The notes under the pieces: model-generated
Database searches by the model: none
What the model saw: the letters and a program-made list of their open reading frames with translations, nothing else
What the model was told of the DNA's origin: nothing
Translations under genes and position numbers: made by a program
Source of the DNA: Cenococcum geophilum
Lineage: Eukaryota
DNA: 64,000 nucleotides
NCBI GenBank assembly: GCA_050273025.1
Contig: CP158635.1
Span: forward strand, 7,502,001-7,566,000
Reading direction: 5' to 3'
Shown here: one piece after another, positions 3,601 to 62,859 of the stretch
How positions within the stretch are numbered: position 1 is the stretch's first letter
Layout of the letters: every line of letters starts with the position of its first letter

Positions 3601-5304
3601 AAATGCGCGGCTTAAAAGGAGGTTAAGAAGTTAATAACTTAAAGTACTAATTTGCCGCTAAAATATATAACATTAATAATAATATAGAAGTTAAAGTTAT
3701 AGTTATTCTTAAGGGTGAACTTAAATCGGCCAGGGGACTTCTAGTTTATTTAGTAGTAATAATAATACTTTATAAGATGCTTAATTACCTTAACCTTAAC
3801 TTTATAGCCTACTTACTAAAAAACCTTAAGCAATTAATAAATAGATAGGTGGCTAAAATAATAGTGTAGTTGGCGTAATTCTAACTTAATTAAGTAGCTT
3901 TAAGTAATACTCTTTTCTAGTTAATAAAGGAGTAACTAGGGGTAACCCTATTTACGCATAATAGGTACCTAATTATTTTTCTAAATAAGTATATTCTTAA
4001 GGTTATTAAGCCTAACGCCTAATTTATTTATATTTTTAATGTAAAATAGAAACGGAGTGTTTGTAGGAATAATATAGAAAGTAATATATCCTAAGGGGGT
4101 TTAGACCCTAATTATGCCGAAAAAGATTATAGTACCTTTACTAAAGCAAATTGTATATTAGCCTACTGTTAATTAATTAATCTAAATAGAGCTATTAAGC
4201 TGCTAAAGAGCTTAAACTTAAGGTTCTCCTACTATAGATACTTTTACGGCTTCTATATCCAGTATAATACTATAAAAGACGTACGCTAAGTATCTATTAT
4301 TAAAGGAAAACGTAAAACTCTCCTTTAGCTTATTAAAGATATTTAATTTTGTAATAAAATGGAGCGTAGATTAATTATTAAGAATAGCAACGGTTTATAT
4401 GCCATCTACCTTACTATACTTAGTAAAGTATTAGTTAGGGGAGTAGTCTTTAATTTCTATATTTATAAGGAGCTGTTTAACCTTATTAACCTTACCCTTA
4501 AGATCTTCTACGCCTTTATATTAAACTAGGAAGCTTTAGAAGTAGGCTATAGTAACCTTATAATTTTTAATATTTCTTATACTTTAACGGAACTTATTAT
4601 ATACCTCTTTTCGCTTATTAAGGGAGTGTTTAGTTAACTAGTAATTTAGCTTTTTATAAATATAGTACTTCGTCTAGCAATTATTTTAAAATAAACCTCT
4701 ATAAGGACCTCTATAATTACCTTATAGTTAATATTAATTATACCCTCTTCCGTATTCCCTACTACGGCCACTATATATTTAATTAGTTTAGTTATAATTA
4801 TATTAGTTAGGAATACTTAGTTAGGTAAGGTTTTTAGTATAGAACTATTAAGATTTTTATATTTATATTATAGTACCTACAGTAGAGCGTAGCTTAGTAT
4901 ATACTCCTTTAAACGTATCTATAGGTTTATATAGCGCTAAGTTGCACTTAGGAACGCTATAGCATGTTAAGATAACCTAGTCCCTTAGGCTGTTCTTATT
5001 TTAGTAAGTTTTAGTAAGTCCACGTTAGATTTTCTAAAGTTTATTAAAGAAGAGTTAAAGGTACTCTAAATAAGTCTTTATTGGGTTAGAAGCAATAACT
5101 CTTTAAAATATAGTTTCTTGCTATTTAGATATATAAAGTTAGTAATTCTTATTAGTTTTAAAGTAGGCTTTAATAAGCTAAAGTATTATATTAAAGCTAT
5201 AGTTTTTACCTGTAATATAGTTGTAATGGAATATTACTACCCGTCTCTTTAATATAATAGAGAAAGCGTAGTAGTACTAGTGGCATTAAATTTTAACCTT
5301 ATTA

Positions 5305-6250
5305 GTAGTAGATTTAATTTACCGTCCGACCCGGTCCCCCTAATGGGTCCACGCAGACTAATTCCTATAGGAAAAGCTCATATTACACTGAGAAAACCCA
5401 TTTTTTGGGTGAATAAAAAACCTCTAAGGGAAACGTGAGAGGTAATACTTCCAGATAGCATCCGTACTACATTAACGGGAGGAGAAAAACACCATCAGGT
5501 TGCTGCTTTGAGACTCCCCTTGCGCGAAAGTATCTAAAATGCCTATCTTGCCCTTATCTACCATTTAAACCATTTTTGCCACGTCTATATATTGCCTGTA
5601 TAAAGTTGTGTGCCTATCCCTAGCTCCTTTTCTAAGTCTTCTGTAAATATCTCCTGATAATAATAACGCTTGCGCTCCGCCCGGGCCTGCATACTAAGGT
5701 CTCTTATCCATTCCTTTATTAAAAGGTTTCTATAATGAGGTGTATATAACTTAGTATCGCTTTTGCCCTAGGTCCTAACCCTAGGCCCTTATACCTATTT
5801 GTGAGGTATAGGAGGACGCTCTAGTATTTAATAGGGGTGACTAGTCCCTATAACTAGATACCCAGATTACCAGGTAATATTAAAATAGGGGGCTTCTGCT
5901 ACGCTTAGGGCGCGGATTGTTTGCGTATGTATGTGGTTGCTGTATAGTGTATATAGTATTTATAGGAGGGAGGGGGTACGCCGGAGGGATAATTGCTTGT
6001 TAATTTGAATGACCGAACGTATATAATAGACGTAGTAGCTATATTTAAACTTTTTGCTAGGGCTCACCCCCTAGTGAAAAAATTTCACACCACCACCACC
6101 ACGTTGCTGTGTAGGCGCTGCGCAGCCGTATATACGTCTCTGCGTTTGCTCTAGTAGTCTATTGACACGATTTAAATGGAATATCAATAGTAGCTGCCAG
6201 GTTCCCGGGCTCCACCGCGTGGAGGTGCAGAGGCTGATTTCATCGAGCCC
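5305..6250 (-). mobile_element. 946-bp non-autonomous non-LTR (SINE-like) element with 5' HDV-like ribozyme, inserted in Copia copy 1
   Basis: 12-bp TSD TTAACCTTATTA at 5293-5304 and 6251-6262. The site is empty in Copia copy 2 (~49755-49770). Short (CTA)n tail and LINE-like 3' stem-loop at 5305-5360. Confidence 0.9.
6136..6250 (-). ncRNA. HDV-like self-cleaving ribozyme (predicted)
   Basis: Minus strand reads: P1 GGGCUC/GAGCCC, P2 CUCUGC/GCAGAG, P3 ACC/GGU, L3 UCCACGC, GG for P1.1, long P4 (CUGGCAG..CUAUUGAUA / UGUCAAUAG..CUACUAG), J4/2 GCAAAC. G1 at 6250 abuts the TSD. Confidence 0.82.
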
Positions 6251-8763: not shown

Positions 8764-8889
8764 TACATCAGCAAAATGTTTGTGCCTCCTGACAGTACTG
8801 ACAGCTCCTGACAGCTCCTGTCAGGGCTGTCAGGAGCTCCAGGAGACACTCACACTCGGCATCCTGTCAGGAACCTGTCAGGAGGTCGC

Positions 8890-23800: not shown

Positions 23801-26800
23801 ACTTTAGTAGTATTATCTTCCAACTATAGTATGCTACTGGGTGCTATTTATCTTAATATCTTTATATAAAGCACGCCCCTAATATATAGTCTAATACATT
23901 TATCTTTATAACCATCTCTAGTTTTAGTTAATAGATCTTAAGAACTGGCTCCTAGGTAAATAACTCTTTAACTTTCTTAAAGAGTTCTCTTTACTCCTCT
24001 CCCTATACCTATAGTTCTTCTTTCTTTATTAACCGCGTAAATAGCTTAATGTCCTTTAACCACTGCGCTATAAACCTTCTATAGTAATTGCAAAACCCTA
24101 AAAACAATCTTAACTATATAACGTTCTCTAGTTCCTACTAATTTACTATAGCCTTAATCTTCTTTAAATCTATACTAAGTTGGCCTAGTTCAATAATAAA
24201 TCTAACAAAATTGGTCTTCCTGGTAAAGAACTCGTATTTCTTAATTACTACTAGCATCTATTCTTCTTATAGTCTCTTTAAAACCCATTTAACGTGTTCC
24301 CTATACTCTTCCTTAGTTATTAAGTAGATAATAATATTATTAAGATATACTATAATAAATTTATTTAAGTATTCCCTTAATATATTATTAATACGCTTCT
24401 AGAACGTTGCTAGTGCGTTTATAAGCCTAAATTATATAACTAATAGTTTGTATAGTCCTTCCTTTAACCTAAAGGCTGCCTTCTATTTATCGCCTTCCTT
24501 AATCCTAATCTAATGGTACGCCTATCTCAGATCTATCTTCGTAAAAATTTGCGTATTACCTATCCTATCTTAGATTTCGCTAATTAAGGGTAAAAGATAC
24601 CTATTCTTCCTAGTAATACTATTTAACTGTTTGTAGTTAATATACAGCCTTAGTTTACCGTTTTTCTTTAGTACAAATAATACTGGATAACCCGCTAATA
24701 ACTACAATAGTCTAATATATCCCTTTTATAGATTTTCCTAAATAAACTCTTTTAACGCTCTACCTTCTTCTTCGGTAAGCTTATAGATTAGAAAAAACTT
24801 TAGACTTATTCCTAGTTCTAACTCTATCTTATAGTCCCATACTGCATATTTTAATAGCTTTTTACTTTCTGGTAACTATAGTTTCTTACCGTACTTATAG
24901 TATTTTTTTAGTATATAACTTAGTCCTTTTTCTATTTCTTTATAGGTTGCTCCTACTTAGTACTATACTAACTTAGCTTGTTGTCGCATCTTATAGCATT
25001 AAGTATCTCTTATATTAACCTAACCTGTAATCTAATTAATCCTTAGATTATATTCCTGTAACCAAGGCATACCTAATATTACCTTATCCCGTCCTATTAG
25101 TAGGATATTAAAAGATATCTTAATTTATCTTCCTTTAATAGTTAGCTAAATAGGTCCTATTTTAAGATTAATAATCCCTCCTCTATAGGTTATTAGATCT
25201 CCTAAAATCGTAACTAATAGGTAAGGTTGCTCCTTTTATCTATAAGGTAGTCCCATTCTCTTAACTACTGCTAGTAAGATATAGTTTCGCGTTACTTTAC
25301 TATCTATTAGCGCTTTAAACTGCTAATCTTGCCACTTAATTTGTAAATTTAGGTATTATCCTTAAATTCCTTTAAGGGTCTAAGGCTCTACTACTAGCTC
25401 CCTCTAGTCCTGTAGGCCTCTACTTTTCCTAACTATTAGCTACTTAATTCTTATATACTTAGCTTATTCTTTGGCTAATACCTAGTTCGCTTTTTATCTT
25501 TAATATACTATAGACACATATTTTTTAGGTATTCCCACTACTATTGTCTATCTAAGCATTCTTCCGTAAGGAATCTTCCTGGTTAAAGTACTAAACTTTC
25601 TTCCTCTTGGACCTCTGCTAGATGCCATTTATATATATATTTAGCATTCTTATACTATTGCTTATCCGTTATTTAGTATATCCTCATAGGGTATTTCCGA
25701 TTCTTTTTCTTTAAATTCTTATATATATTATATATGTCGTCTACGCACGCAATCTATAATAACATATGGTGTACTAGGTGCTTTAGGTTAACTCTTAGCT
25801 TGTCTTTATCCCTAAGTTTAAACCTTTATCTTACTAATCTAAACGTTGTAACTTTATTTATAGGTACTAAAACGCGTCTCTTACTTCTCTAGTCCTCTAA
25901 ACGTTCCTCTAGATCCTTTAATATTATAATTAAGGCTCCTTTAATATGCGTTATAGCCTTCTCTGTAATTAGGTGGTCCTAAATAACCTTTTCGTCCAAC
26001 TATATATAGAAATCTTCCCACTTATTATTGTGCCTTTGCCTATACCACTTTTAGTATAATTACTAGAGTGTATATAGTCTATCCATAAGGAAGTATCTTC
26101 TTATTACTGTATTATAATAGCCCTTTATATATCATTCTTTAAACCTAGTTAGAATCCCTAGATCCTCTTTATTTTCTAGTTTAGTAAGCTACTTAGCTCT
26201 TAGTATACCTGCTCTTAGCCTATTAGTAATTCTTTATACTAGTACTCTGTCCTTTATACGTCCTAATGTACTAAATCTTTTATCTAGTTTCTATTCTTAC
26301 TATACAATAATTCTTTATCTAAACTCTTTTATAGTTTCCTTTAGTTTGCGCCTTACGCTCTAATTCTTAAAGTTATCTTACTTCTTAATCCTAGTATTAA
26401 ACTTTTAATCTTTAGGCTAAACACTATATTCTTCTAGTAAGTCTTCTAGGTCTATATATCTATCTCCTAATTTAACTGCTGTTTATATTGCAGATTCTCT
26501 AATCTATAAAGAAGCTCCTTACCTCTTATTTATAGGTATCCTTATTTATTCTCCGAAATCTTAGTCCCTTAAATTCTTTAATCCTAAGCTTGCTTCTAAC
26601 TTAAGCTTAACTCCTACCTTAGTCTAACTAGGCGTCCGTAGTGTTCTTATCTCGTCTTAAGAGTCTTAAATCTTACTTATCTTGTCTTAAGAGTCTTATA
26701 CCTATAGGAAACTCTATCCTAAGCTTATTTGTATATTTCTAAACTAAGCTACTACCCTACTTTATCGGTTTTCGTCCATTGTGGGTCCTTAGGTGTGCCT

Positions 26801-28848
26801 TATCTTATTTTAAGAATCTTAGTCGTCTCTTATCTTATCCTAAAAATCTTAAGTCTTTAGCCTTTTGCCTTTATTAAGTGCCGAAGTAGTTCACTATCCT
26901 ACTTCTCTTGCGTCTCGCGAAGTGATAGACATTATGTCTAGTGGGGTTTTAATCCCTACTAATATTCCCTGTTCTATAGTAGAATTATCCTCTGCCTCTA
27001 GTATAACATCTCTAAGGTTTACTTACTCCTAGTAAGCGGCCCTTATTACCTTATCATTACGGAATGTTTCGCCTACATTAAATTTATCGTCCTTAATATC
27101 CGATCTACAAACTGGTTTATTAGTTTCTCTATATCCTATAGGTGCTAGCTCTTATAGCCAATAGCTTACGCCATACTTAGCGTCCTTATAAATTTGGTAT
27201 GCGTTATTATAACAAAACGTAAAACTTCTAATTGAATATTCCTTTATTCCTTATAGTATATTGTCGTCCCTCTATATATATATATCGTCTGCTAGTCTTA
27301 TACCCTTTACTATATAGTAACTCTGCCCACTTCTATAGTCTTTAACGTAATAACCCTATTTTCCGCAATTTATATAAGCTCCTTCTTTAAACTATTTCTC
27401 TTACTATAGAGTCCGCCTAAATGTCTTCTACTATTAAGATCCCTAATTCGGCCTCTACTCCTTAGACCTTTAATTACTTAATCCTTATCCTCTAGGTTTC
27501 TATAGTTTGCTCTATTTTTTATAAGCTTCTTTAGTACCGCTTAGGTCTATTAGCTCTGCGCTATACTATATTTTTTAACTTAGCTTTTATCGTTGCGTAC
27601 TTTACGCCTTATATAACTATAAAACTCTATCCTAGCCTCTTTTAGCCTATTCCCTTTAGAAGATCCTATTATTAATCTTAATCGCTTAATCTATTAGTTC
27701 CCTTAGGGTGTCCATATCTTCTATTAGGATAATTACGTCCTAGACTTTAGCCTTAAGTCCCTATTTATACTATGCCATAAGCGCCCTATTATTCCACTCT
27801 ACTTATATTGCTAGTATCTGGAATTATATCGTATACTTAATTACTAAAGTTCGTTATATAAAGTTCTAGAGTTTTCTTTTCGCTATAGTTGTTTCTTCCG
27901 GGTCTCTAAATATCTGCGTAAGTTGTTCTACAAATTCTTCCTAACTTAAGAACATAAATCGCACGTCTTAGTTAGTGGTCGTCATTCCATTTGCCTATAT
28001 CTCTATAAGGTAAGGTTTAAACCACTTAAGTGCTTTTCCTAATAAGAATAGTCCTGCGTAGGCTATCCGATCTATAGGTATAGGTAACTTTACTCCTTCC
28101 TATAAGACCTTAAAGTATATCTATGTAAGGAATCCTTTAAGCTTTAACCTCTCTCCTGTAAATCTCTTAATTGATAGTAGCTTAATCTTTACTACTCCTA
28201 TCCCGTTAAGTCTTTCTTCCAATACTATATTATTAGCTATTAGCTAGTTAACTATTTCCTATAGCTGTCCAACCGTTATAGGTTACTATAAGTTAGTATC
28301 TGCTATACTGGTATCACCTCCTGTCCTTAAAGTAGTTGCTGCCGTTGATGGCGTTATAGTGGCTGCTTTTAGTGGCATATTATTCGACTTCTTATATTAA
28401 TACCGTAACTGGGTAGTAATTATATAACGGAACCTTGTAGCAAAAACTATAATAGGCTCATTAATAGGCTAGGTGTGTAGGAAATATAAGTATAAAAGTT
28501 AACAACGTAATAACAACTAGTGGAGTGGTTGCCTAACAAATTAACTCTAATTATATTCTGAGAATTACTACAAGGAAGGAACTATCTAGGTAGGGACTAA
28601 GGGTCCTTAAATACACAACCGTACTCCTATAAAATCCTTTTTGTATATAATATACGTGTGCTCTGTCTACTCTGTTATAGATCCTATAGATTACACAGAT
28701 TACATAGATCACATCATATGACCTCGGTTACTATTCCTCGTCACATGGTTCTATCAGCTCTATTCTAGACCGTGCCTAAATTAACCAACTAGCTTCTTCC
28801 GTCTCTTCTTTAAGTAGTCGTAACATCGTACTTAAAGCGTCTGTAATA
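20881..28848 (-). mobile_element. Ty3/Gypsy LTR retrotransposon B with long gag extension
   Basis: 426-bp LTRs at 20881-21306 and 28423-28848. TSD ACGGG/ATGGG. PPT at 21307-21322. Protease ALIDSK(G)VTRNYI ~25280-25315. RT VYLNNII ~24330-24350. Gag CCHC ~27335-27380. Confidence 0.94.
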
Positions 28849-32929: not shown

Positions 32930-35900
32930 TTTAGGGGCAGTATATTAATTATATAAAGGTATTATAATACGGTTCTTATATAGCAAGGATATAATATTTC
33001 TCTAGGTCTAGACTGTCTAGTAGGGGCCTTATAAGGCGGTAGTTTATATTGCCGCAGTTATACTATATAATAGATAGGTGGCGGACCCCCAGCGAGGGTC
33101 CTTTAACTCTCCTTCGTTCCTTACTTCTTCTATTTCCATTTTCTCTAGGATATTTAGAGCTTCTATCTCTTATATCTATACCCTAGTTACTACTTATTTT
33201 ATATAGAGCTTTCCATTCCCATATCTTATGTTCCTATTAGCGCTTCTATATCTAAATCTGTTATTATTACCGGTTCTTCCCCTATTCTTACTAGTCGGCT
33301 ATATGCCCTTTATAAGTCGGCTGCGAATATTATATTTGCCGCATTAAGTCTAATTCTTAATTATCCTGGTCTTAAGCCTACTGTCACTATCCATAGGGGT
33401 CTTCCTATAGGGCGTCCTCTCCCTTATGTCCCCTATAACCCTTATATCCCTAATCGGTCTAGTAATATTACACGGCGTCGCTTTTAGCCCGTTAAGGCTT
33501 AGGATAGCTAGCCTAGCCCTCTAGTATTAAAAGTAGGAAACGCTAGAAAGGCGCCTACGTCCCCCTAGCTTATCGCCTATTATTTCCATTTGTATAACCT
33601 AGCGTACAGTTATTCCCGCAGCTATTAAGCCCTTACCTTCCGTCTCCTGTATTTAATGCAGTCTTTTCTCTCCTACACCTTATATATGCTTCGGTGGTAG
33701 TTCGCGCATTTTGTTTAGTCTTAATTTAAAAATGTCTTATATTATAGGGGCCTACATAGTGGCCGCAGCACACCTATGCTACGCATATAGATTAGGTGTG
33801 TCCCCATTATACACAGCAATAGCATTATTCTAGGCGTAGTCTGTGGTTATAGAGCCTTATATTATATATAAGGCCATTTATAATTATTCCTTTTTAGATA
33901 AGAAGTTTTTGTATTCCTAGTATATATATGCTGACGATAAGGGAGCTATGCGTTCGTCCGGCGTCTCCCTAGCGAGTCTCTAGCGACCCTCGTGTCCTCT
34001 TATTGTTTTTATTATATGCTTAGTTTATATTTTCCTGTTAAAGCTATTAAATTCGGGTGATTTCAAGTCCTAGTATAAGGCGTTCCGTTTATCTTACTAT
34101 CTCCTATATAATTGCTATGTTGTCCACCTAGCGTCCCTTTTCTACCCTAAGGCTTATAAGAACCGCTAGGACTTTAACTAGGTAATCCTTGTGGAGTACT
34201 TTTATACTAATACGTTCTCCTAGCCTATCCTTTACCCTTACGACTTATTCCTTTGCCTATTAGTCCTTTAGGGTAACTTTAATGTCTCCGCTCTTAAGGT
34301 GTCGGACTATAATAGTATCGTAGACCTCTTTATATATCTTTATAAGGACTTCTGTTTCTAATTATCCCTTAAGCCCCTCTACTTATTCTATGTTTGGTTA
34401 TATTATAATTATATACCTGGTTATTAACTTAAGGGGGGTAGGTTCCCTATACTGTAAAAGCGCAGCTATAGTAGCCTAGGTGCGGTTCGCCGGTAAGGGG
34501 GGGTTATACTTATTTTTAATTTTACTTAGCCGTTAGAGGATTTAATTAAGGGTTTGCTAAAGGGGCGCCTAAGGTTCGCTAGACTAGCGGAGCTATTCTA
34601 CTAGCTATATTAGTTCGTTATAGCTAACAGTTACTTCCCTATAATTTTGGATACTAGACGCGTCTAATAGGCTTTATATTTTATTAGATGCCTTCTTAAT
34701 AGAGGTATTTCCGCTTTATAGTGCGGTATTCGCCCGTCTTTATTATAGAGGGCTATTGCTAGGCGTAGTTCTAGCGGTTACGCGCAAGTGCGAGCCACCG
34801 TCGTTTGATGTGTGCCTTCCCTGCGATATATGCATTTCAAGGGGATTCTCTAGGTGTTTTTCAGGGTTCTTTTGGTTGGTTTTGGTCTTTTTGGGCCAGG
34901 TATAGCAAGAGCTCCTTTTATCGGCTATAGAAAAGAAATATTTATCTTTTTTTAAATAATAAAGGTATAAAAAATATAGCACTTCCTTATATGCTTTCCA
35001 CGCTTAATTATAAATATTTCTTTACCCTAATAAAAAGGGATAGAGTTAATACTATAGATACTAAAAGGATATATACGCTAGAATATAGAATAGTCTTATT
35101 TAGTCCTATAGGTAGTATAGTATATTTAATTAATATAGCTAAGAAGAGAAAAGAGGTTAAATCCCCATTAGACTATCTTGGTACTTATAACCTTATAAGC
35201 TTTATATAATTTTAAATAGTTAACCCTATAATAGAATTAAAGTAAAAAAGTAGTCTTATTATAAAATATATAAAGTATATACTTTTTAATATATTCTATA
35301 ATTTAGAGTTTAAATATAATTATGTAATATCTACTATTGGTCTTATAAGGTAATATCACGTAGCTACGGTTCGTAGATAGTATAATAATTGTTATTATTC
35401 TATTCTTAATAAGGGAGGGCGAGGAGCTTAAGGCTCCTCGCCACGCTAGTGCCGCGGCGGCACGTAACGGCAACTTGCCGTACGTAATGGCAACTTACCA
35501 CACATAATAGCAATATACCTTATATAGTAACCACTTGCCTTTATTCCTAACACTAGTAACTCTTCTTTTATAGTTACCATCTATATATATATACCGCTTA
35601 ACTATCGGAACAAATATCAATCCTCCTTACTTACTATTGCTATTATAATATAAGTCTCGCTATCCCAAAATTTGCCTCTTAGCACATAGTGCTTTCTTAC
35701 TTATAAGTTATAGGTAGGTATCAGAGGTCCAGGTTAGGCTTAGCATAACCTCAGATTACGCACAACCCCCTAAGGTCCGCAACATATCGTCCAAATATTA
35801 CCCCCCCCCTTTAGTGGTGGCCCCTACTTTTTAGACGCGTTTTTAAGGCCTAGGTTAGTACTAGGTTAGTATAAAGGGCCTTAGCGCGCCTTTAACCTCA

Positions 35901-57052: not shown

Positions 57053-58941
57053 TAGGGTAAATAGGTTATAAAAATCCGTAACTTATATATATATAACGGG
57101 AAACGTAATATACCGACTCTGTTAACCTTAAATTTTGTAAATATTACGTTAGGTTTTATAGCGGTGGTAGGGGATAATAAGTAGGATAGTGCAAGCCGGA
57201 AGTATAGGAGCGGTATAAATTAAAACGGTCGCTATAAAGAAAACCTACTTTCTTGCCTTAATAGCTATAGCGTTAATAATAATTCTCGGTTTTAATAGAG
57301 GTAGTTTTTACAACAATAATAAGGGGGCTTAATCGCCACTATATTACTTAGCGCTATCCAACAGTAAAAATAACGCCTTTATATGTATGTATAAATATTC
57401 CGCTATTTTAATTAGCGAGTCTACCTTCTTAGGTTAAAGAATAAAGAAAGAAAAGGATATAGCTATTATAGTTAGCATTAAAACCAACAGTTATAGGCGT
57501 AACGTTATAGTAGTAAAGCACTACCGTATCCTTGCTGCTTAGTTATTAGCGTGGTACGGCTAACCAGTTCTCTACCATGGTATAGCGTATAGATATTTAC
57601 GTTATACGCTTACTTAAAAGAACATAAGCATATTATACCTCCTTTACGCATTCCCTACTACTACTGTGAGCTATACCTTTAATATAAATAGCTTTATTAA
57701 GCTAAGCTTTCGTTACGTAGCACCTCCTTCTTTATATACTTTTAGGGTGTAGTTAACCTAATAGCCATAAATTAATATATAAAGAAAAGAGACTATTTAT
57801 ATATAAAGGAGTAGACTAGGTTAGTGACCGAGTCGGTAACCAAGTTATAGGTAGGACCCCCCCTATAAAACTCTTAAACTAAGCCGCATTTAGCGTCTAA
57901 TATATAGCGTCGTACTTATAAAGGTGTTAAAACGGTCTCTAATTAGCAGACCTATTAAGATATAGAGGTTAGGGCTAGGTACAAGCCTTAATCTCCCTTA
58001 TTAAATCCTTCTTTACGTTATATTTTATATATAGATCACGGTTCTTGTCCGCGGTAGAAAGCTCTACGTTCTTATAAAATCCTTAAAAGTATAATATCAA
58101 TTTAGCTTAACTCTAGGGCTAGTTTAACTTATCTATATTACTAACTAATTACTTAATATTCTATAGTTCTACCTTAAAGCAAATCCCTTCTACTATATAT
58201 AGACTTTGGTTTATCTAAAAGCAGCTATAATTATTCCTTCCGCATTTTAAATATATATAGTAAACGCTTTATATTTCTTAATCCTAACTTAGAAACCTAG
58301 GATTCCTTCTATATAACATAATAGTCTTTACCTTATAGAGTAAGTCTTTCCTTAATAATATTCTCTATTTCCTACTTTTGCTTATCCTAAAGCTAAGGCA
58401 AATATAATACAATACCTTCTTAGTAATATGCTATATATTTATTAGCAGGTTAGTAGATAATAGGTATTATACCTAATATTAAGCAATCTTCCTTCTATTA
58501 GCTATTAAACTACTAGATATTAAAATCCTACCTAAGCTGCTATCACTACTTAGATTATAGTAATCTTTAATAATCTCATTAAGGAAGTCGTCTATACTTT
58601 AAAAACTATTTAGATCTAAGCTAGTGGCTGCTTTAGAGTAAATATAAGGTTAAGAATATCTTTAAAAAAGCTTATTCTCTTCTAGGACAAGCTAAAGAGG
58701 TAGAAATTTTAGATTTCTTAGGGGATAAGGAGTTTTTAGATAACCCATTAAAGGTAGTAGACTTAAAGTAGAAGAAATGCGTAAGTTAAGTAGATATTAT
58801 AAATAGAAAAAAGGGCTTTTATTTTTATTAGCATATTCTAATAATATATTTCTATTTTTAAACTTATATAGTATATAATTTAAAATAGAACAGTTTAGGG
58901 AGCAGTTAATTAGGAAGGTAACTAATAAGGTATATATATTA

Positions 58942-61900
58942 TTATTATTATTATTTATTCTATTTATTGCCCGATTTAGTCCCTTTTCAAGTCTATACAG
59001 GCTACTACCTATCTATGTAGGAAAAGAATCCCTATAAGGGGAAAAACCTAGGTATTTCCTTTTAGCTAGTCTTACGCGCTCCGCCTTCGCCTAGCTAGTG
59101 TGTCCTTATGTCTTATAGTCTACCTTACGTACCATACTTCCTGGGTATATCGGAAGATCTAGGGGGAGGGAGTAGTGGGAGGGTCTAGCGATTTGCTAGT
59201 GTGCCGCCTATGGCTAGGCGGGGGGTAACCAGTCGCTGAGGGGCTGGAAAGGGGTGTATCCTATAGTGTCCTCCTGTTGGATCTCATGTGCTGTTTGGAA
59301 CTGCTAGAGGATTCCTTATCCTATAAGCCATTTTGCTACTACGTGTAGGCCCCTCTTTATAGAGAGCATCTGGGTAATATTATTTATGCCTGCGCTAGTA
59401 AGTAGCTAGTCCCTTACTGAGCGGTAGCTGCAGAATAGCAGTATATGGCGTACTGACTGAGTGGGCCATCCGCATGTATATTGAGGTGTAGTATTTGGAA
59501 CATAGATGCTTGCGAGCCATGCGTTTAGGCCTAGGACCTCTGTCCGTAGTAGGAAGGCGGCTATAGATTCTGCCTTTATTAGTCCTTTATATAGGGGGAG
59601 GGTTGGTGTCGATTATGGGGTGTTCCATATAGCTATGTCTTGTGTTTTCGCTGCCTCCTTCCATTATCGCTTCTATTTAAGGTCTGCCCATCTTGCAATT
59701 AGTGTAGTAGATCTCCATCTATGCTGGTAACCTCCTGTCCTCTGTTACCGTTGTGGCGCTCTACTGGTGTGGCGGCGGGTCTTAGCCTAGTGGGCTAGTA
59801 GTTCCTATATTTCCTTTTCTCTCTCTACCGCTTGTAGGTAGAGAGCTTCCTAGCTAGTATGCTTGGGCGCGGCTCTCCTTTGAGGGGCCCTTACTCCTTA
59901 TATGAGTCTCGTTCCTCGTATACGTTTTAGTATATAGCGTATTTTTTCTTCTACTGGGTGGCCTTGTACTGTAGCTGCTCTCTATATAGTAGTTATGTCG
60001 ATATATATATCTAGTAGTAAAACTGCCGCTTCGCGTTCTAGTGCGGCGCGCGGTATTCTCTTATAGGCTCCTATAGTTCTATGTAGGCATTGGTTTTAGA
60101 GCTTAGCTAGTGACGCTAGGGAGCTTTTTACTAGCACCTTGCCGCCTAGTCCTAGGCCCCATACCTAGGAGCCGTATAGCATTGTTGGCCTTACAACTGC
60201 TGTGTATAGTAGACGTGTAAGTCTAAAAGAGGGTCCCCATGTTAAGGTAGTAATTCGTAATGCTGCCAAGAGTGCAGCTGCTCCCCTGTGGGTCGCCTAT
60301 GTAATATACTCGTTCCAGTTTAGTCTGGAGTCTACCCAGACCCCTAGGATCTTAAGGGTAGCTTCTAGTTTTACTACACAGCCCTAGATATTTACTGTTG
60401 AGGCTAGGTCGTTGCCTGCCCTTCTTTTCCTTATAAAGTGGATAAGCTAGTATTTATCTGGTGCAAATTTGGCACCGTGTTGTTTTGCCTATACGATGTA
60501 CCTATTGTGCGCCTAGTTTAGCCTAATGCAGTTTTCTACTACTATATTTCCCCATAAGATTAGGTTCGTGTCGTTGACGAATCCTAGGGCTATTGTATCC
60601 TAGCTATTATTAAATGTCTCTAGTAGTTTGGATATAAAGAAGAGGAATAGGATTGGTAAGAGGGGTGAACCCTATAGGATACTTATAGGTGTTGGTATTG
60701 ACTCGCTTTCGTATCCCTCAATTATAATTTTCGTGGTACGTCCTGTTAGAAAGGCTTAGACAAACTTAATTATCTAGTTTAGTAGGCCCTTGTTTCTTAG
60801 GATCTATAGGAGTCTCTTATATAATACGTTGTCGAAGGCTCCGCTTAGGTCTAGGCTTAGCATAGATACGGTGCATCCTAGGTGCGCTTACCATACCGCG
60901 TAGCAGGTAGTTATATAGTAGAGTTCGACATACCTGCTTATCCAGGCCTCTACCTCAGTTTTTAAGTAGTTTTCCCTTACTAAGCCTAAGGGCCTGGGGC
61001 TTTCTATAAGCAGTTAGCTGCCACCACCAATAGCATGGGGAATTTCACCAGTTCTCTCGGGTATCTTATAAATACTAGTCTGCCCCCCAGCAGTCTATAT
61101 AAGAGTTCCCTCCTAAAGTTAGTACGCTTTCGCACGGCTTAGAAGCCTTCCATAGCCTCTAGTTTCACGCCTCTCTTTATCATTTCCGCCGGTACGGGCA
61201 TAGGCTACCATTTGCAGGGGTCGCAACTCCTATCTTACGCGCCTACTAACGTAGTCCTATAAGGGCGTCGTGGCTATATCCTGCAATGTAGAAGCCTTAG
61301 GTACCTTCTACGGTCGAGGCCCAGCCAAAAGCCTCTCCCGCCTAAGTAACTCCTGTTTACTCCTTAAGCGTACCTCACCAGCGTACTGCCCTAGCGAGCA
61401 GTCCTATCTATTAGTACACCAACACGCGCATCCGTTCTCTCAAGCCACGTAGTAGTCTCTCCGGCCAGGATGTGATCCTACCTGCCTACCAGGTGCACTA
61501 GGGGTCAGAGCCTAGCTAAGGGGTAAGGTCCCTAGAGCCAGCAGTGGCTACCACACACTACGCCCCACGGGAGGTTTTAATTCCCGTTTCGCGTTACCTA
61601 TAAGAGTCTCCTTATAATAGGCCGACCGTGTCTTATAGAATAGGTTATAGACTAAATCCCGTGCTAGGCGACCTACCCTACCCTATTCTACTAACCAAGC
61701 TTATATCCCCCCTTATTATAAGCTGGCCTGTGTCTCTAACTATTAAGTCCTCGTACAACTGGCCTGTGTTTCCTTAGAGCCTCCCCCATATATATATGTT
61801 AGGTTACGTGCACTACGCCTATTAAGACCCTCCTGTGAGTCACCTGTAGGTCAAACGCCATAAAGCCGTCAAAGCTGGCCTGTGTTTCCGCTACCTAGAG

Positions 61901-62616
61901 CTTTGCCCGTGTTTCCACCTCGTTAAGCCGTCTGGTCGCCGTCACGTCGCTGTTACGTCGCTATCGCGTCTCTGTCGTCTAGGTCGCGCGCACCACGCCT
62001 ATTAAGACCCTCTTCTAAGTCACCTAGGTGTACCGGATACCAAATAGGCCCTCGCAGAGGGGCCTTAATAAGTTCTCTAGGCAGGGCCTTAACAAGTTCT
62101 TCGCGGTGGCCTTAGGGCCTTAACAAGTTTCGTATAAGGTATCTGCGACACATTAACCTTAACAAGTTCTTATAAAAAAGAGGTTCCCTACGCCCTCGCC
62201 GCGTTCCTTTGCGATCTCAGAGCTAGTGCAAGCCCAAGGGTGTCCTGTCGTACGCCTAGGACGCGTCCGCATCCGCTAGCTTGATAAGGCCAGTTTCGGC
62301 CCTAGCTACGAGCTAGGTAGTCGTACGTCGGGTGGTTTTCGTATCCCAGTTTCCCTTGATTGATTGCCTCCCTAGATGGTAGAGCGGAAGCCTCAAGCGG
62401 AGGCAGTGAGGCTCCTGGTGATGTTAGGGGCGATGCTTTGTACGATGCTTTGTACGCGTCGCGAGCTCAACACCACAGAACCGCGACGACAGCGCGCTGC
62501 ACGCGCTGCGACGGCTCTCTTCCATCGCCTCTGCACTTGGCCATCGTAAGGAAGGGTTTTCCTAATAATGTTTCCACCCGCGGCGACGTGGACGCGTGCA
62601 GTAGGGCTTCGCGGGC
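58942..62616 (-). mobile_element. 3.7-kb chimeric non-LTR element: HDV-like ribozyme + ~1.6 kb unknown module + 3' half of a Tad1-like ORF2
   Basis: 14-bp TSD AGGTATATATATTA at 58928-58941 and 62617-62630; (TAA)n tail. RT motifs SLDLSGAFDNV (~60826-60858), GSPLLPILF (~60645-60672), GFVNDTNL (~60560-60585). No EN, ORF1 or YRPI motif seen upstream. Confidence 0.88.
62531..62616 (-). ncRNA. HDV-like self-cleaving ribozyme (predicted)
   Basis: GCCCGCG-AAGCCCUA-CUGCAC-GCG-UCCACGU-CGC-CGCGGGU-GG-AAA-CAUUAUUAGGAA-AACCC-UUCCUUACGAUG-GCCAA-GUGCAG. This gives a 7-bp P1 with G1.U wobble, P2, P3, canonical L3, P1.1, P4 and a J4/2 carrying the catalytic C. Confidence 0.92.
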
Positions 62617-62859
62617 AGGTATATATATTAACTTAGAATATAACTTAAAATGGAACTTATACAACTTAAAAATAAGTATATATTTAATATAATAGTAAAT
62701 ATTACTCTTACTCTAGGTCTATACTTTAGGTTATTAATTAAATATAAAACCAGTTCTCTTTCTATTATTACTCTCGCTAGCAAGTTATAATATTAACCTT
62801 AAATTCTAAGTTAATAGAGATATAGAGAATTTAATTAATATTAAGTTAAAATTTAAGTT

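Follow-up and report, generated by a model that had tools for sequence, protein, structure and literature searches.

The window analysed here is a stretch of 64,000 nucleotides from the ascomycete Cenococcum geophilum (GenBank assembly GCA_050273025.1, contig CP158635.1, positions 7,502,001 to 7,566,000 of the forward strand). Its minus strand carries an insertion that opens, at its very first base, with a fold of the hepatitis delta virus (HDV) ribozyme type, continues with a long non-coding module and ends with the 3' part of a long interspersed nuclear element (LINE) heavily altered by repeat-induced point mutation (RIP). The two copies of a target-site duplication, at 62617-62630 and 58928-58941, place this insertion between 62616 and 58942, a length of 3675 nt. 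The parts of the locus, with nucleotides (nt) of the ribozyme counted from G62616 as G1, are the following:

62617-62630, minus strand: 5' copy of the target-site duplication, 14 bp, TAATATATATACCT, read directly and matched to 58928-58941.
62531-62616, minus strand: HDV-like ribozyme candidate, 86 nt, found by direct reading, Rfam in E-value mode, minimum free energy (MFE) folding, a structural descriptor and our own covariance model R1.
Directly 5' of G62616, minus strand: predicted cut.
62616-62610/62582-62576, minus strand: P1, GCCCGCG/CGCGGGU (nt 1-7/35-41), with a G1.U41 wobble.
Between P1 and P2, minus strand: J1/2, AAGCCCUA.
62601-62596/62536-62531, minus strand: P2, CUGCAC/GUGCAG (nt 16-21/81-86).
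62595-62593/62585-62583, minus strand: P3, GCG/CGC (nt 22-24/32-34).
62592-62586, minus strand: L3, UCCACGU (nt 25-31).
62575-62574, minus strand: G partners of P1.1, C26C27/G42G43.
62570-62542, minus strand: P4 hairpin (nt 47-58/64-75).
62540-62537, minus strand: J4/2, C77-C78-A79-A80, with the predicted catalytic C at 62540.
60904-62616, minus strand: 5' module, made of the ribozyme and about 1.6 kb of non-coding sequence, ending in conserved ...CAGGTATGTCGAACTCTACTATATAACTACCTG.
58942-60903, minus strand: 5'-truncated 3' part of a LINE of the apurinic/apyrimidinic endonuclease (APE) plus reverse transcriptase (RT) type ('LINE-b'), RIP-degraded, with many stops, 84% identical to positions 4088-6032 of the metagenome locus L031.
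60366-60866, minus strand: RT remnant, LDLSGAFDNV ... FVNDTNL (Pfam RVT_1, E=1.1e-4, 22.4 bits, below the 29.6 cut-off).
58942-58990, minus strand: LINE 3' tail (...AAAGGGACTAAATCGGGCAATAAATAGAATAAATAATAATAATAA), read directly, of the same type as in L031 and L052.
58928-58941, minus strand: 3' copy of the target-site duplication, TAATATATATACCT, directly after the (TAA)n/(AAT)n-type tail.

Read along the minus strand from G62616, the order is GCCCGCG-AAGCCCUA-CUGCAC-GCG-UCCACGU-CGC-CGCGGGU-GG-AAA-P4 hairpin-G-CCAA-GUGCAG, so that reading and descriptor both find all the elements of the HDV-like plan, a 7-bp P1, P2, a 3-bp P3, a 2-bp P1.1 and P4. The descriptor considers structure only (G1, a U ending P1, Watson-Crick pairs in P3 and P1.1, a 5-bp P2, a P4 hairpin and CNAA in J4/2). 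Applied to 40 dinucleotide shuffles of the window it matched once in total, a mean of 0.025 per window; applied to the window itself it matched at the ribozyme site and at one other place, 62713-62626. Searched in E-value mode, RF00094 (HDV_ribozyme) is the best structured match of Rfam, covering 62524-62618 on the minus strand with model positions 1-89 (25 bits for a threshold of 50, E=0.17). The alignment keeps P1, P3, P4, the UCC-CG motif of L3 and AUGGC-AA in register, with C77-C78-A79-A80 of J4/2 facing GGCuAA of the model. A less mutated copy of the element, at locus L011, reaches 31.8 bits with RF02682 (threshold 44, E=2.7e-4) and 29.2 bits with RF00094 (threshold 50, E=0.018), and both of these top Rfam matches are HDV-type models aligned over their full length. 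The nested MFE fold yields P1, P3 and P4, and model R1 gives 102.9 bits at the ribozyme, its sole match in the window. The HDV-like fold at 62616-62531 is thus real: the nested double pseudoknot that an earlier note on this DNA had described stands base for base, ending at 62531, where shuffled sequence would have given 0.025 matches. From this architecture the RNA is predicted to cleave itself 5' of G1.

The second match of the descriptor, 62626-62713 on the minus strand, is made of A and T only, sits just upstream of the element and shares bases with the target-site duplication. We discarded it as a low-complexity false positive; it implies that shuffles of the whole window overstate the specificity of the descriptor in RIP-ravaged DNA.

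The predicted cut falls on the first inserted base. The sequence TAATATATATACCT stands directly 5' of G62616 and again behind the tail, as expected from the earlier note, which had placed the cleavage-site G against a 14-bp duplication; a 15-mer scan for this duplication says little by itself (7 matches with up to 2 mismatches for 3.83 expected), and it is the family of copies that gives the site its weight. Metagenome contigs were scanned with a pattern combining L3, the GG-AACAU stretch and AUGGCYAA, which returned at least 121 loci. Of the 124 matches listed, to which the counts of copies given here and below refer, 122 belong to the family of the window's element. Other copies do start at the same G after unrelated flanks, a point that the earlier note had left to be checked: 116 distinct copies have 40 nt or more of flank upstream; 110 of them open with G, 4 with A and one each with T and C, and 104 begin with GCCCGCG. 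Column identity does not exceed 0.59 at positions -12 to -1 and is at least 0.95 from +1 onwards. Compared in pairs, the copies have a mean identity of 0.33 in the 30 nt upstream (where a single pair in 6670 is at least 70% identical) and of 0.965 in the element's first 30 nt. An exact 11-mer duplication abuts G1 in 20 of the 49 distinct copies that could be tested, for 0-2 of 49 in controls (six shifted 11-mers gave 1, 2, 0, 0, 0 and 2 matches), and 18 of the 20 downstream repeats sit directly behind a recognisable 3' tail; the duplication-flanked chimeras measure 2.26-7.04 kb in all.

Sequencing runs tell the same of this boundary. In two DNA runs the summed word depth drops from 44,294 to 291 (about 150-fold) and from 4,285 to 13 (about 320-fold) from the bin that ends at 62620 to the one that starts at 62621. 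In four public runs compared with 62000-62800, loose ends fall exactly at 62616, with a consensus agreement of 0.51-0.78; such poor agreement reflects many copies with different flanks. The window itself holds no further copy of the family, by BLAST, pattern or model R1. As to composition, the flanks of the 116 copies favour A at -12 (0.59) and T at -11 (0.51), positions that correspond to 62627-62628 in the window, and TATA-like runs are frequent; lying at the far edge of the duplication, this A/T probably marks the preferred nick site of the endonuclease.

The copies also tell us where the fold tolerates change. Per 10 nt, the divergence stays at 0.017-0.058 in nt 1-50 and at 0.029 in nt 81-90, and rises to 0.165-0.205 in distal P4 and to about 0.07-0.25 over the next 230 nt. 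Weak conservation of distal P4 is the pattern expected of HDV-like ribozymes in which P4 is dispensable, and it is again P4 that holds the best-supported variants within the ribozyme in the public runs, a sample free of the bias of the search pattern. At nt 50 and 53, where the window has U, most copies in these runs show C (a RIP-like change of CpA to TpA), and at nt 71 they show U; C50 and U71 restore the C50-G72 and A51-U71 pairs of P4. The G1.U41 wobble is kept in 90 of 96 aligned copies and replaced by A-U in 4. Double-sided changes affect 10 pairs, mostly as RIP-type transitions, where shuffles average 6.1 and 11 in 500 come up to the figure observed; the single transversion pair, A58-U64 to U-A, occurs in L117 and L118. 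The mutation spectrum among copies is indeed RIP-like, with C>T 909 times and G>A 737 times for 21-130 per type of transversion. The indices of the window are 1.68 for TpA/ApT and 0.51 for (CpA+TpG)/(ApC+GpT), to be read against the usual RIP thresholds. We dropped the idea that the ribozyme core resists RIP, CpA/TpG sites being about equally frequent in nt 1-49 and downstream.

Behind the ribozyme, all copies of the family share the module, of 1.4-1.85 kb and 73-90% identity among the matches listed. Its 3' end is constant, ...AACTCTACTATATAACTACCT (also given as ...AACTACCTG): a strict regular expression finds this motif in 26 of the 51 copies with more than 2.3 kb of sequence, and after it each copy continues into a different sequence (22 ends). 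The majority consensus of 24 modules has no open reading frame (ORF) above 86 codons, and Rfam at gathering thresholds gave 0 matches over 11 loci (127 kb), so that no known RNA accounts for the 3' end of the module. Splicing behind the constant left breakpoint was considered and rejected, the sole GTATGT lying in the retained part and the mapped right junctions having no preceding AG. The last bases of the module (about 60904-60940 in the window) could form a 6-bp CAGGTA/TACCTG stem which takes in the G after ...ACCT. Further inside, on the minus strand, there are four spaced copies of (A/G)AACTT(G/A)TTAAGG within about 120 nt (window about 62070-62190) and two 46-nt repeats, CCTAGGTGACTTAGAAGAGGGTCTTAATAGGCGTGGTG..., 85% identical and 180 nt apart (window 61800-62025).

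What follows the module varies. Among the listed matches, 14 of 22 junctions map to 14 different LINE positions, 12 in a family that we call LINE-a and 2 in LINE-b, the window's included, where LINE-b joins the module at position ~2412 of the LINE part of L031; of the others, 2 are the references themselves and 6 have no LINE match near the junction. In L023 and L006 the module is fused to a 1.02-kb element resembling a short interspersed nuclear element (SINE), L005, L015 and L047 end in poly(A), and the short copies are made up of the module and the final 0.5-1.25 kb of long ones. The base after ...ACCT is G or A in 22 of 22 copies, the partner then going on mostly with CC or CY. Read directly, the junctions show no duplication between module and partner: duplications flank the whole chimeras. 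The two partner LINE families are about 65% identical in the RT core. The longest LINE-b chimera, L031, encodes Exo_endo_phos_2 (E=5e-10), RVT_1 and a CCHC-like knuckle; in the window all that is left of the RT domain is its C-terminal part, RVT_1 profile positions 69-194 out of 205. Intact relatives have an ORF2 of about 1100 aa with APE and RT. Close ones are 37-71% identical to P0001 and have APE and RT only; more distant named relatives, with RNase H too, come from Exserohilum, Colletotrichum, Parastagonospora, Aspergillus, Penicillium and Fusarium (Pezizomycotina). Downstream of the 45 copies whose sequence extends to 3 kb or more, no complete LINE ORF occurs and only 4 stop-free stretches reach 200 codons: all these copies are degraded.

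The window also contains, at 32931-34915 on the minus strand, the 5' two kilobases of a LINE-a, 83% identical to positions 13-1999 of the LINE part of L038; an unrelated AT-rich flank leads there into ...GGAGCTCTTGCTATACCTGGCC, with no ribozyme in front. A dispersed repeat at 25537-27537 resembles, at about 79% identity, stretches of L042, L019, L015 and further loci.

The same architecture is that of MINE, reportedly also the subject of a study by Fudal et al. 2005. In Magnaporthe grisea, MINE is a full-length 1.1-kb non-coding RNA (ncRNA), WEIRD, fused to the LINE MGL truncated in 5' at 28 sites; no solo gene for WEIRD is known, a WEIRD-MgSINE chimera also exists, direct repeats are of 10-20 bp, and a GCC motif marks the junctions (Gogvadze et al., 2007, PMC2104539). 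Its authors explain the chimeras by template jumps of the LINE reverse transcriptase (PMC2104539). Both systems place a full-length ncRNA with constant ends at the 5' side, fused directly to variably truncated LINE parts; both include SINE-like chimeras, direct repeats around the whole, C-rich junctions (GCC in MINE; here G, then mostly CC) and a filamentous ascomycete as host. They differ in that the module is here of 1.4-1.85 kb for 1.1 kb in WEIRD and starts with an HDV-like fold; the likeness to WEIRD and MGL meant here is one of architecture. The MINE papers PMC2104539 and PMC3978060 mention ribozymes 0 times.

We can therefore set out the explanation that we consider the most probable, and in which we place a good measure of confidence: the window would hold one dead, RIP-mutated MINE-type chimera, with in 5' a full-length module of about 1.7 kb headed by the HDV-like ribozyme, and in 3' the last 1.96 kb of a LINE. 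The fold, the coincidence across the family of cut site and first base, the constant ends of the module, the variety of its partners and the duplications around whole chimeras are observations; catalysis, template jumping and independence from a promoter of the module's own would make sense of them. In this scheme a transcript running into a copy of the module would be cut by the ribozyme just 5' of G1, and because HDV-type ribozymes need no upstream sequence, the RNA of the module or chimera would receive an exact 5'-OH end. While a LINE or SINE-like RNA undergoes target-primed reverse transcription, the RT of the LINE would then jump from a broken or finished template to the fixed 3' end of module RNA (...ACCUG, usually followed by CC), and copying would run to the module's first base. 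The chimera would integrate with a target-site duplication of 12-18 bp, each new copy regenerating the ribozyme.

Several facts weigh against this explanation. Rfam at gathering thresholds gives 0 matches in the window, and all its HDV-type scores, for the window copy as for L011, stay under the gathering score; the curated HDV-type models of Rfam have narrow seeds and are unable to score P2 or P1.1. Folding energies are not significant relative to shuffles (z-scores of -0.33 for the window and -1.18 for L011). Over 96 distinct copies of the listed matches the pair cells are paired at 90.6%, for 33-54% when the structure is slid along the alignment, a figure inflated by the fact that the structure came from sequences of the same family; the mid-P4 pairs 52/72, 53/71 and 54/70 are mostly unpaired. 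The 27 double-sided changes are mostly transitions from G-C to A-U, of a kind that RIP can make without selection. The metagenome pattern fixed 23 positions (L3, U41-G43, A45-U49, A73-C77 and A79-A80), and their invariance, that of the catalytic C included, carries no weight because the search required it; with this pattern, moreover, copies truncated in 5' cannot be retrieved. The raw-read RNA run X24 has, at a depth of about 7, which is too shallow to reveal cleaved ends, 6 reads that run upstream past 62616 and no reported pile-up of read ends at G1. The reads crossing the site would be uncleaved co-transcripts or contaminating DNA; the RNA contigs of X15 are junction-spanning pieces only. 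No known RNA family or processing signal explains the fixed 3' end of the module RNA. A precise 5' end, finally, could equally be a transcription start, as it is for U6 in U6-L1 chimeras.

In another explanation the first 86 nt or so would serve twice, as internal promoter at the DNA level and, at the RNA level, as a ribozyme that trims read-through or imprecise transcripts. The precedent is Pr77 of L1Tc and NARTc in Trypanosoma cruzi, a ribozyme of the HDV-like kind that acts as a promoter too and whose cleavage has been demonstrated in vitro (Sanchez-Luque et al., 2011, PMC3185411). These elements have in common with ours an HDV-like fold as the first ~77-86 nt of dispersed, duplication-flanked elements that depend on an APE-LINE, and the ribozyme occurs there in coding and non-coding elements alike, its cleavage at +1 setting the 5' end of the RNA, a cleavage that is predicted here. 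Sense-strand reads in X24 go in the same direction, with 37 first mates on the plus strand versus 5 at 62000-62026. The strand convention of that library is however assumed, and the promoter role is a putative one; we regard the double function as rather unlikely.

A different explanation, near to that of the earlier note, would keep the ribozyme within the LINE. The module would be the LINE's own long 5' untranslated region (UTR), with its ribozyme, after the manner of R2 and L1Tc, and the window and short copies would be non-autonomous products of internal deletion. This is the design shared by NARTc and by the short internally deleted elements (SIDEs) of R2 (PMC6765202, PMC3185411). The window copy is indeed L031 minus about 2.4 kb, L031 has CCHC knuckle, APE and RT downstream of its module, and in L038 the module stands directly before a near-complete LINE. 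R2, with its 5' HDV-like ribozyme, and its SIDEs are the work of Eickbush and Eickbush (2010, 2012, as cited in PMC6765202). As presented there, the ribozyme releases the element from a co-transcript, a release that may also occur here, and SIDEs keep the ribozyme and the 3' end. R2 differs from our elements by its site specificity in ribosomal DNA, its restriction-like endonuclease and, as far as that source goes, the lack of such a duplication; and SIDEs derive from R2 itself by deletion, with no foreign leader fused to them.

The LINE itself speaks against this. Six copies of LINE-a, the one at 34915-32931 of the window among them, begin at an end of their own, ...GGAGCTCTTGCTGCACCCGGCC, after unrelated flanks and with no module, and one of these LINEs, L057, is a full-length 5.58-kb copy between 16-bp duplications; at this native 5' end neither the descriptor nor Rfam nor model R1 finds a ribozyme. 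The left breakpoint is always the same base, whereas the right one differs in 14 of the 14 mapped cases, and the partners comprise two LINE families with RT cores of only about 65% identity, together with a SINE-like element and non-LINE sequence that ends in poly(A). Since LINE-a starts ribozyme-free and the module joins varied partners, the ribozyme belongs to the module and not to the LINE, and a leader derived from the LINE itself appears improbable. In L1Tc, by contrast, the ribozyme is the LINE's own 5' end (PMC3185411), while here the autonomous LINE has none. The interpretation of the earlier note is thus retained in part: the fold and the identity of the cut site with the first inserted base stand, but a simple non-autonomous derivative of a putative Tad1-type LINE that carries the ribozyme as its own has to give way to a separate module with many partners.

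We would judge it equally improbable that the module is an ordinary non-coding RNA whose transcription starts at G1, with a fold that is non-catalytic or a relic, the RT simply running off a natural end. Chimeras made by template switching begin at the natural 5' end of the acceptor RNA whatever its origin, as WEIRD and U6 illustrate (PMC2104539); Rfam scores below threshold and RNA reads crossing the G1 site agree with such a start. U6-L1 and other mammalian chimeric retrogenes do resemble our elements, with a small RNA copied to its exact 5' end, a truncated LINE and duplications outside, but the 5' end of U6 is an RNA polymerase III start, no ribozyme is described, and the acceptors are cellular housekeeping RNAs (PMC2104539). 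Here the start would have to match, to the base, a cleavage site given by an independent structural descriptor, the unrelated flanks would impose a wholly internal promoter, and the core helices and J4/2 are far better kept than distal P4 or the UTR that follows. That a GC-rich leader should resemble the HDV fold by chance is scarcely credible, for although the all-A/T match at 62713-62626 shows that the descriptor can fire randomly in real sequence, 0.025 matches are expected per shuffled window, HDV models top the Rfam list and the predicted cut is the start of the element in the 116 listed copies.

The ribozyme of the module may not be alone of its kind. A second candidate, which we call type B, occupies positions 6557-6641 of L042 on the minus strand and is placed at the first base of a 1.02-kb SINE-like element, after an AT-rich flank; a repeat like that at 25537-27537 of the window hosts or adjoins this stand-alone element. 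It combines P1 GGCCGUC/GACGGCU, P2 CUCUGC/GCAGAG, P3 ACC/GGU, L3 UGUACGU, P1.1 GU/AC, an 8-bp P4 and CCAAC in J4/2, the helices all differing from those of the module's ribozyme (type A), and the element ends in a LINE-like tail (...GGATCCGTATTAGACGTTAATCAAG...). Three copies are known here, two of them internal, right behind a type A module and with T at position 1 (L023, about 8799-8885, plus strand; L006, about 5259-5175, minus strand). Its best Rfam match is RF02682, with 16.5 bits and E=0.83, and model R1 gives no match at E up to 10; since R1 misses it, the candidate rests on the descriptor and on the weak RF02682 match, and we propose it as a lead. Unrelated, well-formed HDV-like ribozymes also turned up on two other metagenome contigs, at about 210-284 of L088 and 35-110 of L018, both on the minus strand, with the same loops and entirely different, fully paired P1, P2, P3 and P4, which implies that the metagenome pattern picks genuine HDV-type architectures. 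In L088 the ribozyme occupies an AT-rich spacer that separates the starts of two tandem paralogous genes (ATGYCTGATTYAAATTGTYCAAAT); the L018 contig ends about 40 nt downstream of its own.

Among retroelements, R2 and L1Tc/NARTc are established bearers of a 5' HDV-like ribozyme, and RTE and Baggins are reported ones (PMC6765202, PMC3185411); these are elements of animals and trypanosomes, and in these cases the ribozyme is the LINE's own start. [quoted passage not shown] Searches of the full-text literature, whose coverage did not extend to Webb 2009 and Ruminski 2011, where fungal cases may be found, gave no paper that describes a fungal retroelement with such a ribozyme; PMC3185411 has a 2011 remark on unpublished 'laboratory data' concerning an HDV-compatible fold in Penicillium chrysogenum. 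In this landscape our finding is best described as a putative HDV-like ribozyme capping the leader of a MINE-type chimera in a RIP-active ascomycete.

If this ribozyme is active, the strategy of the 5' ribozyme would extend to fungi, where it would serve a 'hitch-hiker' RNA propagated by template switching rather than the LINE itself, and it would offer a testable answer to the origin of leaders of the MINE/WEIRD type and to their constant full length. A ribozyme at the first base would let a promoter-less module regenerate from any read-through transcript of any chimera, which, if true, would account for the absence of solo genes for such leaders. The uncapped 5'-OH RNA of the module would be a recurrent acceptor for the template jumps of LINE reverse transcriptase, and the module would spread without a LINE-like 3' end of its own. 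The type B ribozyme, heading a SINE-like element, hints that ribozyme capping may be a general strategy in this fungal retroelement community. We suggest, tentatively and with more doubt than conviction, that WEIRD-type leaders may be ribozyme-capped RNAs, the module then being a new kind of genomic parasite which spreads on the 5' ends of the complementary DNAs of other elements.

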